Virus genome (UHGV): UHGV-1533542
Length of the DNA: 30,878 nucleotides
Direction: 5' to 3' (one strand)
From: a virus
Shown here: one piece after another, positions 4,173-26,807 of the stretch
Position numbering within the stretch: the first letter of the stretch is position 1
Layout of the letters: the number at the start of each line of letters is the position of its first letter
Position numbers and translations under genes: made by a program
Notes under the pieces: generated by a model
Told to the model about the DNA's origin: nothing
Database searches by the model: none
The model's input: the letters and a program-made list of their open reading frames with translations, nothing else

Positions 4173-6929
4173 TTAGCTACTTTCAAGCATTGCAAGACGT
4201 GATTCTATTTTTTCGATTCTTCTACGCAAATAAGCTGACTCAAGCCATAAACACTGGTCAGTACGGATACCCCACCTATTTCCAGCCTTGCAAACCAGAG
4301 TTCGCTCTTCTGTTTCGTATTCTTCTTCCATCTCAATTTCGACGCCATCCACAACTTTAGTGATCATCCTTACCGCCATCACTGGCGCGTATTTATCATC
4401 CCATTCATCGTAACAGAGAAGGCCAAATCTGGTTCCATCAATCCCATGCGCGAGGAAAGTGTCTCTCACTTGTTGTGCTATAACACCAAAATGCCAGCGG
4501 GCACCATCTCCCTTTTCCCTGACGGCATCAAGCCAGCGAAAAGCTACAATCCTGATATCTCCCCATGCATCCAGAATTGCATCACCTTCATAACCACGAG
4601 ACATATACAAGCTGAGCTCACTTGTACTAATCGGTTCACTTTTTTCTCTACCATCTGATGTGTTTATCGAACCGTTCGCAGAATAAACCTGTGCCCATCT
4701 AAATGATGGTGCACCAAGAGATTTGCTGTTATCAATAATTGGTGAAAAATTACCTTTAATGGCAATATTTCCAGAGTCGCCGAGTATATTAATAACTGCA
4801 GAGTCATCACCATGGTTTTTTACGCTTAAGTTTCTTGATGAAATATTTATATCTTTGTTATATCCACTAACATTAATCCATCTTTTACCATCAATGTGAT
4901 ACCCGTAAATATTTCCGTCTGATTGTTCGTCAGGTGACTCTCTAAGAACAATAGCATCTGCTCCAGACGACCATTGTATTTTTGTATCTGTAGGCCTCCA
5001 GTTCTTTATAATGAACGAACCATCAGTAAACTCCGTTTTTATTTGTCTATTGTCTACAAATGCGTCTCTTGGTTTAAACTCACTTGTGTTAACGCTGCTC
5101 TGAAGATCAGAAGCAAAAAATCTAAGATTTCCTGTATAACCCTGAGTCTCGGTCTTGTTATACGCAATCATAATTCCATTTTCAAACTCAGATGATGTTA
5201 TTTTAACATCACGGCAATCACCAAAAATGCAATTTCCTTTATCAAATGTTGTTTGAGCTTTGAATTTATCAAACCTTAAATTACGAACAGGGAAACCATC
5301 AACCTCTAATGCAAAGGATGCAGGAAGGCCAAAGTATTCTGATGGCTTACCTGATGTATGATCAAGAGTAGTGGCTACTGTATTCTCAAAAACAGTCCCG
5401 CTAAAATTATTACCAATTGACGGAAACCTGATTACACTTATTGTACCTTGTATTTCAGGAGAAATACCAGATAGTGTGATGTTAGCTCCATCAAATGATG
5501 CATCTGAATACGTATATACTGATTCACTGCCAGCAATTTTAAACTGTTTAACTGAAGTTATTCTCATCGACTTTTTATGTTTAAATGTCACTGAGCTTTC
5601 AGTATTACTTACAAGATCAATCTGAGGGCTATTCCTTATCGCGATCCCTGACTGGACATAAACGTTATTAAAGTGCGTTTTTTCAGGATTTCCCTTCATT
5701 GAAAGGCTCCCGTCATTTTCTGTCAGTAGTAGTCCTTTTACCCTCCAATAGCCGACAATCTGTACGTTATCAATAACTGAATCACAGCTATCGTATACAT
5801 GCAACCCTATATCCCAGTTATCACCCAATGAATAAGAATCAGGGTTATTGTATCCTTCAATACCATTTTTACTTACCATTATTCTCAGATTGCGTAACTG
5901 TGATGCCCTGTTGATACTAACAGCTACGCTCATGGCTTTTGGTGTAGCAGGAGTAACACCTACAGAATCTTCATTTGTAAACTCAGTGAACTTACAAGAT
6001 ATCCCTTCAACAATTTTAACTGGTCTTTCATTAGAGATGTTAAAAAAATATTTGTTTTTTTCTCCATCACCAGTAAATACAAGATGGGTTCCTTTACTCC
6101 AACTTTTTAATAATCTTTCAGGCGCTGGTCTATATGTATCCCAGTAATCAATTCCATCACCAATTAATGAAACTCCAGGAGGCACATCTATATTCTTAGA
6201 AATCATCCATTTACCTGCAGGTATTCTAACGACACTTGCACCAGAATTTATCGCATTAATTAACCATTCAGACGCATCAACTTCAAAATTTAATGCAGCA
6301 TATCTTTGCTCAAACGGAACAAAATCAAGAGCGTTAACGTTATCCCGCATCTTATCCTGGAACGTTCGGTATACTGCTCCAGAACCATACTGAATAAACC
6401 AACCAAAACCACCAATAACTCCGGCGATTGCAGCATCGACATAATTACGCATTGAGCGATTATTTACAGCGTCCTGCTCAAGTGATGGATCAGCAAGGTT
6501 AGATATTCTGTTTTGCTTTGCATCGTAATATTTTGCAAGCAAAGATGGTTTCATCAATGCACGTCTGAACCACCCAAAACATTGCTGGATCAGCATCGTC
6601 AGGTAGTCAAAAGCATCTTCATGCACTTCGGGGAAAAATTTACCCTGATTGCGAAGGTCTGTCTCCTGCACTACATCAAGCACACGATCTATCGTAATTC
6701 GCCATCCAGCAGCAAGCGGAGACGGAAGAACAACAGAACCGCCACTATAAGTGCCCGCCCCAGTTACCGTATAACCGGTATCCAGAACCAATTCTGTTAC
6801 GTTCCCGTTCAGGTCAGACACCTGAACAACCAGGTCGGATTTTTTGAAAATACGGAAGGTATACGGAAATGATGTCGTAGCGCCGTTACCAGTGTATTCG
6901 TTGTGGTCAACTTCGGTTGAGACCGTCAT
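4173..6929 (-). CDS. tailspike / tail fibre with depolymerase-type body and C-terminal intramolecular chaperone (peptidase S74-like) domain
   Basis: 918-aa ORF with SD GGAGA 6 nt before ATG; C-terminal ~160 aa match, from memory, the endosialidase auto-chaperone domain (S-D-G-R-E-K cleavage motif, DAWGD, HFGVIAQQVRD, C-terminal RRRIEKIESRLAMLE); central Asn/Ser/Gly-rich repeats consistent with a beta-helix. Confidence 0.88.
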   Translation of the reverse strand: MTVSTEVDHNEYTGNGATTSFPYTFRIFKKSDLVVQVSDLNGNVTELVLDTGYTVTGAGTYSGGSVVLPSPLAAGWRITIDRVLDVVQETDLRNQGKFFPEVHEDAFDYLTMLIQQCFGWFRRALMKPSLLAKYYDAKQNRISNLADPSLEQDAVNNRSMRNYVDAAIAGVIGGFGWFIQYGSGAVYRTFQDKMRDNVNALDFVPFEQRYAALNFEVDASEWLINAINSGASVVRIPAGKWMISKNIDVPPGVSLIGDGIDYWDTYRPAPERLLKSWSKGTHLVFTGDGEKNKYFFNISNERPVKIVEGISCKFTEFTNEDSVGVTPATPKAMSVAVSINRASQLRNLRIMVSKNGIEGYNNPDSYSLGDNWDIGLHVYDSCDSVIDNVQIVGYWRVKGLLLTENDGSLSMKGNPEKTHFNNVYVQSGIAIRNSPQIDLVSNTESSVTFKHKKSMRITSVKQFKIAGSESVYTYSDASFDGANITLSGISPEIQGTISVIRFPSIGNNFSGTVFENTVATTLDHTSGKPSEYFGLPASFALEVDGFPVRNLRFDKFKAQTTFDKGNCIFGDCRDVKITSSEFENGIMIAYNKTETQGYTGNLRFFASDLQSSVNTSEFKPRDAFVDNRQIKTEFTDGSFIIKNWRPTDTKIQWSSGADAIVLRESPDEQSDGNIYGYHIDGKRWINVSGYNKDINISSRNLSVKNHGDDSAVINILGDSGNIAIKGNFSPIIDNSKSLGAPSFRWAQVYSANGSINTSDGREKSEPISTSELSLYMSRGYEGDAILDAWGDIRIVAFRWLDAVREKGDGARWHFGVIAQQVRDTFLAHGIDGTRFGLLCYDEWDDKYAPVMAVRMITKVVDGVEIEMEEEYETEERTLVCKAGNRWGIRTDQCLWLESAYLRRRIEKIESRLAMLESS

Positions 6930-7033
6930 GTTAAATCTCCAGATAGTCGCAGCACCCGTTGCGCCGCATATCTGGTTATTCTATTACCTGAAAAACCATA
7001 TATGGATAGATAACCCATAAATACGAAAAGATA

Positions 7034-7048
7034 TTACCTTTCAGGTGA
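7034..7048. promoter_or_regulatory. ATTACC-N5-GGTAAT-type dyad, copy a (TTACC-TTTCA-GGTGA; one mismatch)
   Basis: Inverted repeat in the divergent intergenic region between tailspike start (6929) and the 85-aa gene; a partial copy (TTACCTGAAA) at about 6984. Confidence 0.5.
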
Positions 7049-7085
7049 TTTGCAAAACGTGCTGGATAGCAAACAAATTATTTGA

Positions 7086-7105
7086 TACTGTATATTTATA
7101 CAGTT
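7086..7105. promoter_or_regulatory. LexA (SOS) box
   Basis: TACTGTATATTTATACAGTT: CTGT-N8-ACAG with AT-rich spacer, 18/20 identical to E. coli consensus TACTGTATATATATACAGTA; 20 bp upstream of ATG 7125. Confidence 0.75.
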
Positions 7106-7124: not shown

Positions 7125-7382
7125 ATGCAGCAGTATCACTATCCACTGGAAGACGGATTTACCGAAAGGATTCACACGCCGGGAGGCGTCAGGTCACTGG
7201 TGGAGGGATCGCACTTGATGAAATTACTCCGGGATCTCGATAAGGATGGATTTAATGTCGATGGCCCACTTGCCGAACTGACTGCACTGATTAACTACGT
7301 CACCAGCTCACAGATGTCTATGCAGGATCTGCAAACACATCTCGACTATTGTGCCGAACAATTACGAAAACAAACCCGGTAA
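7125..7382 (+). CDS. 85-aa protein preceded by a LexA box; paralogous to C-terminal domain of the Bro-N protein (antirepressor candidate)
   Basis: ATG with SD GGAGAAG; ORF opens at TTG 7107 but ATG 7125 preferred; by-eye alignment with residues ~148-228 of the 8528-9214 protein (HLMKLLRDLDKDGFNVDGPLAELT...DLQTHLDY vs LLMNLLNQLQEDGHDVSGAAAELT...DIQTHAEY). Confidence 0.65.
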   Translation: MQQYHYPLEDGFTERIHTPGGVRSLVEGSHLMKLLRDLDKDGFNVDGPLAELTALINYVTSSQMSMQDLQTHLDYCAEQLRKQTR

Positions 7383-7389
7383 ATTTAAA

Positions 7390-7405
7390 GGCCGCAAGAG
7401 CGGCC
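7390..7405. terminator. bidirectional hairpin terminator between convergent genes
   Basis: GGCCGC-AAGA-GCGGCC stem-loop with A/T-rich flanks, between the stop at 7382 (+) and the stop at 7405 (-). Confidence 0.5.
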
Positions 7406-8133
7406 TATCGTTTCGCTTTGTGCTCATCCCAGCACGTTTTGCACCATGCCATTAAGCCGTCCGCATTTTGATTATTAGGGTAAAAGCTGGTTCGTTTTCT
7501 GCGGACATTACAAATTGGGCACCACTTCATATGGCGTGTATTCTTTGGGCCATCGAGACACCTTGCACACCACTTAGTCAATCCATCTGGATTTTTTGAC
7601 GATTTCCTGAATTTTTCATATGGAAGGTTTATTCTGCATCGCAAGCACTGCTTGCTACCACTTGAAACTCTGTTAGCTGATTCTTCTTTTGGCGGCGATG
7701 CAGAAGGTATTCTTGCTGGCTCTGATACTGCCTGAGGTGCTTTTTTAGATGACTGAGACGATATGTCATCACCAGGGAATCTTCCATGATATGCCGGACG
7801 CGTTGACACTCCAGGTGGAAGCTCAGCTGTAAACGGCTTTGGCTGAATCAGTTGCCTCTCTTTTGCTAACTCCTGCTGTTTATAATATGTCTGGATTACC
7901 GCACTATCATAAGCAGGAGGTGCGGAAATATTAGGCGCATTACCTCCAGTTTTTTGAAACTGAGTAGAGGTGTGTTCTATCACCTGTGTACGATTAATCG
8001 TTATCTCCCCATCTTCGGTCTTTATCGTTTTGTTATGATTAACGACCGTACGATCAGAGATCTTAGTCTTGTTCTGGTTGATAACGTAAATAATCACCGC
8101 AACCACACCAACAACTATCCAGAAAACTTCCAT
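7405..8133 (-). CDS. membrane-anchored protein with C-terminal tandem zinc ribbons, function unknown
   Basis: SD GAGGA 6 nt before ATG; N-terminal TM helix (VFWIVVGVVAVIIYVI); Pro/Ser-rich linker; C-terminal Cys cluster CLRC...WCARC...WCPIC...WCKTC (two CxxC-N~20-CxxC units). Confidence 0.7.
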   Translation of the reverse strand: MEVFWIVVGVVAVIIYVINQNKTKISDRTVVNHNKTIKTEDGEITINRTQVIEHTSTQFQKTGGNAPNISAPPAYDSAVIQTYYKQQELAKERQLIQPKPFTAELPPGVSTRPAYHGRFPGDDISSQSSKKAPQAVSEPARIPSASPPKEESANRVSSGSKQCLRCRINLPYEKFRKSSKNPDGLTKWCARCLDGPKNTRHMKWCPICNVRRKRTSFYPNNQNADGLMAWCKTCWDEHKAKR

Positions 8134-8153
8134 TGCTTTTCCTCACAATAACA

Positions 8154-8168
8154 TTACCTTAAAGGTAA
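8154..8168. promoter_or_regulatory. ATTACC-N5-GGTAAT dyad, copy b (perfect; TTACC-TTAAA-GGTAA)
   Basis: Perfect inverted repeat about 20 bp upstream of the RBS of minus-strand gene 7405-8133, in the divergent region shared with the Bro-N gene; weaker related site CTTGCTTTCAGGTGA at 8172-8186. Confidence 0.55.
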
Positions 8169-8246
8169 TATCTTGCTTTCAGGTGATCAAGCGTTAAACG
8201 CAATCAACCAAATACGGTTGATTTTAATATTTCTTCGCGTTTATCA

Positions 8247-8261: not shown

Positions 8262-8527
8262 ATTTACATCGCACTCCTCTTGTGCCATAGTAATCGGGCA
8301 CTGGATTTTGCCAGTGCCGGGATTGGCGTCCCGGGTTACTACAGAGGCACATATGCCGCATAAGCGGTTTTTTTATGTGTAAAGCGCACCTATTCTATGG
8401 TGGGCTGTGTGGGGGCACCGAAAGGTGCGCCGGGTCCTTTGTAGCCGGTTACGCCAACCCTGCACAGTTCACCACCAACCGATTGGCGTCGGTAGTGGTG
8501 ATTAACCTAACTACAAAGGTGATCACT

Positions 8528-9214
8528 ATGACTGCTAACGTAACCCCATCTGTTTTTCATTTTGAATCAGAGGCAACCATTCGAGCCATTGTTATTGATG
8601 GAAATCCTTGGTTTGTTGCCAAAGACGTTATTAAAGCTCTTCAACTGACAAACCCCACTATGTCAATAAAATCTCTTGATGATGATGAAAGGGCTAAATT
8701 TAACTTAGGCCGTCAAGGCGAAACCAATATTATCAACGAGTCAGGCCTCTACACACTGATCCTCCGCTGCCGCGATGCGGTGACACCAGGCACTATCCCC
8801 TACCGCTTTCGTAAATGGGTTACAGGTGAGGTTCTTCCTCAGATCCGCCGCACCGGAAGTTACATTAAAAACTCGCTCCCGCAGGAAGAACGCATAAAGA
8901 TGGTTGCCGACCAGGTAGCCAACGCCACGGCGTCAGCAGTAATGCAGGCGATGAAGATAGAGAACAAAACCTACAGTGCCCCGCTGAAGCCCGGCTACCG
9001 CAGCCTGATTCACTCGCCGTCTGGTGTTCTCGGCCTGACGGAGAACTCACTGCTGATGAATCTGCTGAACCAGTTACAGGAAGACGGGCACGACGTATCG
9101 GGCGCGGCGGCAGAGCTGACCACCATGTTCTGCTACATCGTCGGTGTGAGCAAATGCCTGCGTGATATCCAGACGCACGCGGAGTACATCAACGACAAAG
9201 CAGGATTCTTCTGA
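8528..9214 (+). CDS. Bro-N domain protein (phage antirepressor-like) with C-terminal domain paralogous to the 85-aa protein
   Basis: ATG 8528 with SD AAGGTG chosen over the RBS-less ATG 8375; N-terminal Bro-N signature (FHFESEATIRAIVIDGNPWFVAKDVIKALQL); hairpin with weak T-tract after stop. Confidence 0.85.
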   Translation: MTANVTPSVFHFESEATIRAIVIDGNPWFVAKDVIKALQLTNPTMSIKSLDDDERAKFNLGRQGETNIINESGLYTLILRCRDAVTPGTIPYRFRKWVTGEVLPQIRRTGSYIKNSLPQEERIKMVADQVANATASAVMQAMKIENKTYSAPLKPGYRSLIHSPSGVLGLTENSLLMNLLNQLQEDGHDVSGAAAELTTMFCYIVGVSKCLRDIQTHAEYINDKAGFF

Positions 9215-9362: not shown

Positions 9363-9542
9363 ATGCGAAACGAAAAATTGCAGATGCGTAGAGCGCAAGC
9401 TGCCGCAAGACGTTCTTTCAATGGAAGCGTAGAGTGCGTAAAAGTTACTATGACAAAAGATCACGCAAGTCGCGTATCCCGCGCTTTCTTTGATTCTCGT
9501 AACAATAAGGAAAATTATGAGTTCGTCTGCGTCGCAGAATGA
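9363..9542 (+). CDS. small ORF (59 aa) upstream of and overlapping the toxin-like gene; antitoxin candidate
   Basis: ATG 9363 preceded by SD GAGG (gaggtaatgtcATG); basic 59-aa product; overlaps next gene start by 26 nt in another frame; below the ORF-track size cutoff; coding status unproven. Confidence 0.3.
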   Translation: MRNEKLQMRRAQAAARRSFNGSVECVKVTMTKDHASRVSRAFFDSRNNKENYEFVCVAE

Positions 9543-10062
9543 TAAAAATCAAATTGTCAGATATAAGGGTCGAGTATTGCATACGCAAAATTTCTCGGCC
9601 CTTTGTGCATCTGATCTTGAGCTGAAGAAAGTATCTGATGCCTTTACCCAGTATTGGAAAACGGGATACCATCCATCTCTTGGTAAAGATGCTGCATTTG
9701 CTCGTCCGACAGAAATGCTTAAACTAAATGTCAGGCATACTCATGTCGATAACCAAGACTATATTCCAGAAGATAGTGATAAAAAACACACTGGTAAAAA
9801 ATCATCTTGGGATGCATGGAAAAATATAGCGTCTGTGCAAGTAAAATGCATACCAACAAGTGATTGCTTTTTAGTTTATTCGGTAAATCACAATCGTGAT
9901 GCGCTGGTTATGTTTTTTGTTGACGCAGATGCCCACAACATAACTGAGCAAGAAGAGTTTAAAGAGGCAGCAATCACTATCAGTTATCAATTCTTTGAGA
10001 AAACAAAAACAGAACCAATGCCTTTAGAAGAAGATCTTTTTTCTGATAAATGGAAGGAATAA
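9517..10062 (+). CDS. 181-aa protein with YafO-like toxin features (candidate mRNA-interferase-type toxin)
   Basis: ATG 9517 with SD AAGGA (ORF opens at TTG 9490); by-eye similarity to my recollection of E. coli YafO (F.QY.K.G..P..GKDA, L.V.HTHV, F/HLVY...AL....D..H); strong terminator follows. Confidence 0.6.
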   Translation: MSSSASQNDKNQIVRYKGRVLHTQNFSALCASDLELKKVSDAFTQYWKTGYHPSLGKDAAFARPTEMLKLNVRHTHVDNQDYIPEDSDKKHTGKKSSWDAWKNIASVQVKCIPTSDCFLVYSVNHNRDALVMFFVDADAHNITEQEEFKEAAITISYQFFEKTKTEPMPLEEDLFSDKWKE

Positions 10063-26303: not shown

Positions 26304-26393
26304 ATCAATGACTCCGTACGCAATTAAATTATTACCAATTTAACCACATATGATTTATTTATCGTAGATAGTTGACATTTAACGCGCGAATTA

Positions 26394-26408
26394 TTACCTT
26401 TCAGGTAA
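26394..26408. promoter_or_regulatory. ATTACC-N5-GGTAAT dyad, copy c (TTACC-TTTCA-GGTAA)
   Basis: Perfect TTACC-N5-GGTAA 17 bp downstream of a TTGACA hexamer (26372-26377), between the divergent head operon and the plus-strand tRNA unit. Confidence 0.5.
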
Positions 26409-26730: not shown

Positions 26731-26807
26731 GTGGCATTAGCTCAGTTGGACAGAGCAACCGCCTTCTAAGCGGTTGGTCGCAGGTTCGAATCCTGCATGC
26801 CACGCCA
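26731..26807 (+). tRNA. tRNA-Arg (anticodon UCU), phage-encoded
   Basis: Cloverleaf read by eye: acceptor GTGGCAT/ATGCCAC, D-arm GCTC..GAGC, anticodon stem ACCGC/GCGGT with loop CTTCTAA (anticodon TCT), T-arm GCAGG-TTCGAAT-CCTGC, encoded CCA; body close to but distinct from E. coli argU as I recall it. Confidence 0.88.

Follow-up and report, generated by a model that had tools for sequence, protein, structure and literature searches.

The stretch of DNA analyzed here, the 30,878-nucleotide viral genome UHGV-1533542 (one strand, 5' to 3'; referred to as the window), harbors at positions 7405-8133 on the minus strand a gene encoding a 242-residue protein. With a probability of about 0.85, this protein is a bitopic inner-membrane protein that presents a basic double zinc module of the type found in DNA enzymes at the cytoplasmic face of the membrane, and it is encoded in a repressor-controlled cassette. 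More tentatively (about 0.3-0.35), we infer that the protein captures DNA at the membrane and in this way interferes with the entry of DNA from a second phage. The family is uncharacterized, but its components are known ones (a moron cassette encoding a membrane anchor, a flexible linker and zinc modules of the nuclease type), and the island that harbors it is also of a known kind. The reality of the gene, its layout, the kinship and charge of its modules, the conservation of the cassette and its operator, and the genomic position were all determined by computation only. The coding sequence is organized as follows:

7405-8133, minus strand: coding sequence of the membrane-anchored double zinc-module protein (242 residues; ATG start, TAG stop at 7405-7407)
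8074-8133, minus strand: N-terminal transmembrane (TM) helix, residues 1-20 (ME-VFWIVVGVVAVIIYVINQ), from hydropathy and an AlphaFold2 helix at residues 3-20 with a predicted local distance difference test score (pLDDT) of about 90
7954-8073, minus strand: conserved juxtamembrane segment, residues 21-60 (NKTK..DRTVV..TIKTEDGEITINRTQV), identity 0.57, modelled as a beta-hairpin
7666-7953, minus strand: hypervariable linker rich in Pro, Ala, Ser and Gln (flexible tether), residues 61-156, identity 0.16, pLDDT mostly below 50
7558-7647, minus strand: zinc module 1, C163-x2-C166-x22-C189-x2-C192, pLDDT above 90, aligning with the N-terminal Cys4 site of PacI
7432-7521, minus strand: zinc module 2, C205-x2-C208-x22-C231-x2-C234, matching N-terminal modules of endonuclease VII, HNH and Lar-like families in PHROG

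Residues 1-20 constitute the sole hydrophobic segment of the protein (Kyte-Doolittle mean of 2.33 over 19 residues; all other stretches reach at most 1.6). In the AlphaFold2 model, which was based on the family alignment, the TM helix is predicted with confidence and is followed by a beta-hairpin of low confidence (residues 26-55, pLDDT 44-53), a helix (77-94), a disordered region (95-155) and a confidently modelled tandem zinc domain (157-242, pLDDT >90). The linker contains 14 Pro, 12 Ala and 11 Ser among its 96 residues. These data agree with the original prediction, made from the sequence without database searches, of a single N-terminal TM helix, a Pro/Ser-rich linker and two CxxC modules.

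No Lys or Arg precedes the helix and the net charge across the 15 residues that follow it is +3. Because positive charge is absent before the helix and a basic stretch is found after it, the predicted topology is N-out and C-in, where approximately two residues would be exposed to the periplasm and the remainder would reside in the cytoplasm on a flexible leash. A cytoplasmic C-terminus is predicted also because the eight zinc-ligand Cys residues would not survive in the oxidizing periplasm. A cleavable signal peptide was considered and rejected upon reading of the sequence, which displays no basic n-region, remains hydrophobic to about residue 18-20 and lacks an AXA-like site. A signalling role, one of the candidate functions suggested earlier, is unlikely because only the two or so outermost residues are predicted to be periplasmic.

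All eight Cys residues are paired as CxxC (163/166, 189/192, 205/208 and 231/234), i.e., CxxC-N22-CxxC twice, where a spacing of about 20 had been proposed. The Trp residues said to precede the second and fourth CxxC are found there, but they are not the only ones, as a Trp stands directly before the third CxxC as well. In the model of each module, the first CxxC is located near short strands and the second where a strand passes into a short helix. With four Cys ligands per module, all eight of which are invariant and confidently modelled, both modules are predicted to bind zinc. The zinc domain is strongly basic (net charge +14, isoelectric point 9.9).

Remote-homology searches returned a full-length profile match to phrog_6762, a family of unknown function (residues 1-242 against positions 1-242 of 242, E 2.2e-150), and no characterized family, which upholds the earlier statement that the architecture could not be placed in a known phage family. 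The 242-residue protein has no match in NCBIfam, and its only Pfam match, to Stc1 (PF12898), is below threshold (21.2 bits, compared to a gathering score of 24.8) and covers positions 51-83 of 84; relatives with many repeats of the module exceed this gathering score. A word-indexed search identified 33 relatives, all from Enterobacterales and all annotated as hypothetical, and a HMMER scan of 1.84 billion representative sequences yielded 1,663 proteins at E <= 1e-3, with approximately 40 full-length clusters at 50% identity. In the literature, neither a characterized membrane-anchored zinc-ribbon prophage protein nor a paper describing the family was found.

The family is common and conserved, yet unstudied. 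The gene is present in 129 of the 5,426 complete Escherichia (E.) coli genomes (2.4%), where it is always chromosomal, of full length and annotated as hypothetical, homologues occur on more than 800 Salmonella contigs, and the family spans prophages of at least nine genera. The layout is kept down to about 26% identity in phages of Serratia, Providencia, Pectobacterium, Salmonella, Yersinia and Aeromonas. Among relatives of 26-64% identity, the eight Cys residues as well as K161, F175, D183, G184, W188, K203, R212, D225, L227 and W230 are invariant; as judged from these alignments, the Cys pattern is beyond chance. Mean pairwise identity is 0.70 in the TM helix (19-20 residues), 0.57 in the juxtamembrane segment (constantly 40 residues, with T39 and G42 invariant), 0.16 in the linker (53-96 residues) and 0.66-0.67 in the zinc modules (approximately 44-45 residues for module 1 and up to 42 for module 2). 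The net charge of the zinc domain is +11 to +17 across the family, including the most distant members at 26% identity. Relative to the copy in phage TL-2011b, dN/dS is 0.31, a value that rests on only 15 substitutions.

More distant relatives retain the modules in other surroundings. Three of these (P0092, P0093 and P0114) have the TM helix and two modules, with the hairpin and linker swapped for heptad-like charged stretches that by eye resemble a coiled coil, and in another (P0103) the membrane anchor is replaced by a sequence with, by eye, the HPD motif of J-domains. The distant full-length relatives P0063, P0077 and P0084 carry the precomputed Pfam tag PF27269.1. The Salmonella enterica homologue, of 212 residues, is found in a T7-like prophage, where no other plus-strand gene lies between the T7-type terminase gene and the genes for internal virion proteins; a promoter-like TTGCAA-18-TAGTAT precedes it, and the TTACC palindrome described below is absent.

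The zinc modules point to DNA enzymes. In PHROG, matches were obtained to N-terminal modules in the endonuclease VII, HNH, primase and Lar-like families (E 2e-11 to 3e-3), and a likeness to the accessory Cys4 modules of nucleases is found in PHROG families 1035, 2633, 2340 and 2255, in PacI and Hpy99I, and in matches in BFVD. The sole match in a sequence search of the PDB, to PacI residues 3-41 (E 0.11), covers only the N-terminal zinc site of that enzyme. In BFVD, 33 structural matches were obtained at E <= 1e-3, and the annotation of many of these is HNH endonuclease or zinc-finger protein, from actinophages and giant viruses. The best structural neighbors are Hpy99I and PacI, i.e., beta-beta-alpha-Me restriction enzymes with Cys4 sites. 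A Foldseek search of the PDB with the full model gave no match at E <= 0.001 because most of the model is disordered. The module unit is also repeated up to 10 times in large proteins that contain ResIII/DEAD or SF1 helicase domains. Taken together with the strongly basic domain, these nuclease-accessory modules lend support to a membrane-tethered nucleic-acid-binding protein, another of the functions proposed at the outset. No catalytic His or Asn is conserved in the family alignments (H201 is not conserved in distant members), and neither the protein nor the relatives scanned match Pfam HNH or Endonuclease_7. The lack of conserved catalytic residues therefore makes this a nuclease-type zinc module without a nuclease.

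Judged from its sequence, the gene is a self-contained cassette that comprises a predicted promoter, a ribosome-binding site, the coding sequence and a terminator:

8140-8144, minus strand: ribosome-binding site GAGGA, 6 nt before the ATG (read from the sequence)
8154-8168: operator b, perfect palindrome TTACCTTAAAGGTAA (TTACC-N5-GGTAA), putative site of a double helix-turn-helix (HTH) repressor
8162-8190, minus strand: predicted sigma-70 promoter (by consensus), with -35 TTGATC at 8185-8190, a 17-nt spacer and -10 TACCTT at 8162-8167
7389-7406, minus strand: terminator hairpin AGGCCGCTCTTGCGGCCT, then TTTAAATTT, overlapping the stop codon (terminator scan)

The operator is present as originally predicted, but the distance of about 20 bp assigned to the ribosome-binding site is that to the ATG; operator b precedes the ATG by 20 nt and GAGGA by 9 nt, and the -10 element TACCTT sits inside it. 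In the window, TTACC-N5-GGTAA occurs at eight sites with at most one mismatch, compared to 0.48 expected (each listed with the feature that it precedes):

7034: convergent 85-residue gene
8154: zinc-module gene
8247: Bro-N leader
9288: YafO-like gene
26394: tRNA gene
29587 and 29605: small terminase gene
3805: a further site

In phage TL-2011b the palindrome is found on both sides of the repressor gene gp10 (at 5172/5234 and 5946/5994), which is how left and right operators are arranged. A Pectobacterium prophage has it around the gene of a homologous repressor. The two repressors, each of the double-HTH type, match phrog_8 and phrog_13326, and neither matches a UmuD-like (S24 peptidase-type) family. 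The palindrome recurs 32-48 nt upstream of homologues of the zinc-module gene, and similar promoter layouts are found:

Serratia: TTGAAC-17-TACCTT
Pectobacterium: TTGACA-16-TACCTT
Loci L078-L083: TTGACC-17-TACCTT
Locus L085: TTGATC-17-TACCTT
Window, 26373-26401: TTGACA-17-TACCTT
Providencia: TTGAAC-17-TAACCT, inside TTAACC-N5-GGTTAA

In Providencia, the design is kept while the palindrome is changed, which is expected if every cassette responds to the repressor of the phage that carries it. One repressor thus seems to directly control many promoters, often with the -10 element inside the operator. Downstream of the gene, the hairpin at 7389-7406 (-14.4 kcal/mol on the minus strand and -15.5 kcal/mol on the plus strand) does lie between the two convergent genes, but the proposal of a shared bidirectional terminator holds in part only, as the terminator scan is passed solely by its minus-strand side. 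Comparable hairpin terminators follow the homologues.

A moron is an autonomous accessory transcription unit within a phage genome (PMC3594210), and the zinc-module gene has the corresponding properties, i.e., a promoter of its own (predicted), a terminator of its own and absence from some relatives. Because the -10 element lies inside an operator of the main repressor, the gene of the E. coli phage is probably silent in a stable lysogen and turned on after infection or induction; for the same reason, a classical moron that is expressed in lysogens and confers superinfection exclusion was set aside for this gene. In Aeromonas phage phiARM81mr (4242-5642), an S24-type cI gene lies on the same strand as the homologue (p22), with 18 nt between its stop codon and the start of p22. 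A strong terminator comes after p22, which is probably co-transcribed with cI in lysogens.

From this combination of features we infer how the protein might act, i.e., by DNA binding that results in exclusion of other phages. The N-terminal helix would anchor the protein in the inner membrane and the leash would hold the zinc domain on the cytoplasmic side, where it could sweep the membrane face and bind DNA. If the captured DNA is that of an incoming second phage, its entry would be hindered. In epsilon15-like phages such exclusion would act during infection or induction, since the repressor operator overlaps the -10 element, i.e., while repressor immunity is absent, while in the Aeromonas relative it would act in the lysogen through co-transcription with cI. 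Exclusion is suggested because the modules are basic and of the nuclease type, and because the gene's island position is shared with sieA and sim. Phage P22 SieA is an inner-membrane superinfection-exclusion protein (PMC10883804) encoded between the ejection gene 16 and the mnt-arc-ant region, and the sim operon of phage P1 adjoins c4-icd-ant (PMC6906374); by analogy, the position of the zinc-module gene is one in which these two model phages keep exclusion genes. The conserved zinc domain next to a variable linker suggests a ligand that changes slowly, for example DNA, and not a phage protein that evolves fast. A more specific version of this model, which we consider doubtful, is that the family represents a new class of leashed, catalytically dead, nuclease-derived zinc fingers that catch DNA emerging from the podovirus ejection channel and are wired to the repressor, so that they would work precisely while repressor immunity is down; if true, it would be superinfection exclusion from the cytoplasmic side, a mechanism so far undescribed.

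Several points weigh against DNA capture and exclusion. The promoter is predicted from consensus alone, and repressor control would leave lysogens of the E. coli phage unprotected, unlike in classical superinfection-exclusion systems. Furthermore, the expression regimes differ between Aeromonas (cI operon) and E. coli (repressed), so that one function must fit both. In nucleases, such modules can have a purely structural role, and a basic domain near the membrane could bind acidic lipids instead of DNA. Homology to P22 SieA was not found (hhalign probability 0.1%), and no match to the PADLOC-DB models of defense proteins was obtained at E <= 0.1. In addition, the Stc1 domain, the only one in Pfam that touches the modules, mediates protein-protein contacts.

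This last point leads to protein sequestration, which we regard as unlikely, where the modules would bind a host factor (of division, proteolysis or transcription) or a phage regulator, in the manner of a ZipA-style tether or a membrane anti-factor, and thereby alter the lysis-lysogeny decision or host takeover. The protein does have the ZipA outline (an N-out anchor, a charged juxtamembrane region, a Pro/Gln-type linker and a C-terminal globular domain), the module is fused to J-domain-like sequence in P0103, and the gene is always located in or beside immunity and antirepressor circuitry, i.e., near a Bro-N or KilA-N antirepressor or after cI. However, the Stc1 match comprises half a domain at a sub-threshold score, the kinship with modules of DNA enzymes is far stronger, and polyanion binding is the more typical role of a domain with such a conserved charge. 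There is also no Pfam match to ZipA or anti-sigma domains.

DNA binding could alternatively serve the phage's own genome. Protein p16.7 of phage phi29 is a membrane-anchored early DNA-binding protein with a coiled-coil spacer, and a similar tether, organizing replication or packaging at the inner membrane, would account for the shared outline of N-terminal TM helix, spacer and basic C-terminal domain of nucleic-acid type, for the coiled-coil-like spacers of P0092, P0093 and P0114, and for the predicted repressor-free expression, which fits an early lytic function. We nevertheless consider such a tether improbable, as the gene is dispensable, being absent from phiV10 and many epsilon15-like phages, and is scattered as a mobile cassette that is found even in a small non-phage-like island in Buttiauxella. 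Moreover, the Aeromonas copy in the cI operon would be expressed in lysogens, where a replication tether is not needed.

An anti-restriction or anti-defense early protein similar to Lar or Ral, which would either shield phage DNA from a host nuclease associated with the membrane or serve as a decoy for the nuclease, is quite improbable. Its starting point is the match of module 2 to the N-terminal part of phrog_5558, a "Lar-like restriction alleviation protein" (residues 201-241 against positions 7-47 of 130, E 3e-9), to which may be added the predicted immediate-early expression and the toxin-antitoxin-type genes in the island (YafO-like here and HicAB in relatives). This match reflects the shared zinc module alone (41 of 130 positions), and nucleases and primases match equally well or better; the cI-operon location in Aeromonas does not fit either, and Lar and Ral are not known to have a membrane anchor. 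Finally, a degenerate or cryptic nuclease, in which the two modules would form a beta-beta-alpha-metal fold that cuts DNA at the membrane, is suggested by the structural neighbors (Hpy99I and PacI first, then many viral HNH endonucleases) but has only the remotest probability and was rejected, as the family alignments lack catalytic residues (no His-Asn-His or Asp-His constellation, with K, F, D, G, W, L and R as the only invariant non-Cys residues), Pfam nuclease domains are not matched and the PacI alignment is limited to the N-terminal zinc site.

The window is, by its sequence, an epsilon15/phiV10-like (Uetakevirus-like) E. coli prophage. Around the gene it shares 96.5% identity with phage TL-2011b (NC_019445.1), which has an intact 242-residue copy at 34513-35241. 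In the TL-2011b record, the homologue is not a coding sequence but only a misc_feature of 1,089 nt, "similar to hypothetical protein". The accessory-island setting noted earlier was confirmed from the neighboring genes, where the zinc-module gene lies at the tail-fiber end of an island between the ejection genes and the tail fiber:

4173-6929, minus strand: tail fiber, 918 residues, with an S74 chaperone domain
7028-7065, plus strand: candidate remnant of a second, oppositely oriented cassette copy (repeat comparison)
7088-7103: LexA box CTGTATATTTATACAG, near-consensus, 22 nt upstream of the 85-residue gene
7125-7382, plus strand: 85-residue gene, convergent with the zinc-module gene, product matching phrog_450
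8298-8374, plus strand: isrK Hfq-binding small RNA (Rfam, 56.7 bits)
8355-8368: terminator-like hairpin ending isrK
8393-8479, plus strand: C4 antisense RNA (Rfam, 79.5 bits)
about 8519-9214, plus strand: Bro-N antirepressor gene, with the start taken from the TL-2011b annotation and not from the listed open reading frame (ORF) at 8375
9490-10062, plus strand: YafO-like toxin gene (Pfam PF13957 at 25.8 bits, slightly over the threshold)
10318 onward, minus strand: internal virion protein genes

The zinc-module gene is divergent from the Bro-N gene, as had been proposed, but the latter starts at about 8519 rather than 8375, with isrK and C4 in between. These two RNAs fill the Bro-N leader, and position 8375 is therefore not the start of the gene. 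With isrK and C4 ahead of Bro-N, the island is in its sequence organization an immI-type antirepressor region that resembles that of P1 (c4-icd-ant). The convergent gene had been described as SOS-controlled, in agreement with the LexA box that precedes it, and it looks like a small antirepressor of the Tum or Gifsy type. The domain of its product recurs at the C-terminal end of the Bro-N antirepressor.

Upstream of the LexA box, the segment at 7028-7065 consists of a promoter/operator part that is identical in 20 of 22 positions to the reverse complement of 8153-8174, followed by one base and an exact 15-mer that corresponds to codons C231-W235 (reverse complement of 7429-7443), with an estimated chance probability of about 1e-4 (our own estimate). 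The same segment, with one mismatch, is found in TL-2011b, and it may be what remains of a deleted cassette copy in the opposite orientation. Elsewhere in the window, a tRNA-Arg gene (anticodon TCT; 26731-26807, plus strand) is found downstream of the operator-embedded promoter TTGACA-17-TACCTT and a G+C-rich stretch of 300 nt, which overlaps an 87-residue ORF without a PHROG match and matches no Rfam family.

Homologues in Serratia, Superficieibacter, Providencia, Pectobacterium, Yersinia and Salmonella occupy the same island, between tail-fiber or terminase genes and the internal-virion (ejection) genes. They are mostly convergent with the last internal-virion gene, and their neighbors include Bro-N or KilA-N antirepressors and HicAB. 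Apart from the phiARM81mr copy discussed above, the exception is the Buttiauxella homologue, whose island also holds a repressor and resolvases.

If DNA is indeed captured at the membrane, this would be a mechanistically new route by which a phage excludes competitors or organizes its own genome, and it would mean that zinc modules of nucleases have been reused as a stand-alone, tethered binding device. The repressor palindrome in many -10 elements, the LexA-controlled antirepressor candidate and the isrK/C4-controlled Bro-N gene together provide a testable map of the switch from lysogeny to lytic growth.

Among known systems, P22 SieA is similar in that it is an inner-membrane protein encoded by a self-contained gene on the opposite strand, in an island between ejection-protein genes and antirepressor/tailspike genes, and most homologues of the zinc-module gene converge on the last gene for an internal virion protein, just as sieA and gene 16 converge. 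The two proteins are not related in sequence, the SieA sequence displays several hydrophobic stretches and no zinc modules, and SieA is made in lysogens, whereas the promoter of the zinc-module gene is embedded in a repressor operator. The position of the phiARM81mr homologue after cI is that of rexAB in phage lambda. Like p16.7 of phi29, the zinc-module protein has an N-terminal TM anchor, a spacer and a C-terminal domain that would keep DNA close to the membrane; its expression is predicted for the lytic phase, and in distant relatives the spacers are coiled-coil-like. In contrast, the DNA-binding domain and the phage type are unrelated, DNA binding by the zinc-module protein is putative, and its gene is dispensable and mobile. 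E. coli ZipA is similar in architecture only, i.e., an outside N-terminus, one TM helix, a charged juxtamembrane region, a Pro-rich linker and a cytoplasmic globular C-terminal domain; there is no homology, and the FtsZ-binding ZipA_C domain was not found in the Pfam scans. Of the Pfam models, Stc1 alone reaches the modules, but it does so below threshold and with the C-terminal half of the model only. The accessory Cys4 modules of PacI/Hpy99I-type nucleases share the motif K-x-C-x2-C...F...DG...WC-x2-C with the 242-residue protein; in contrast to these enzymes, the protein has no nuclease core or catalytic residues, and its two modules, on their own, make up the C-terminal part of a protein with a membrane anchor.

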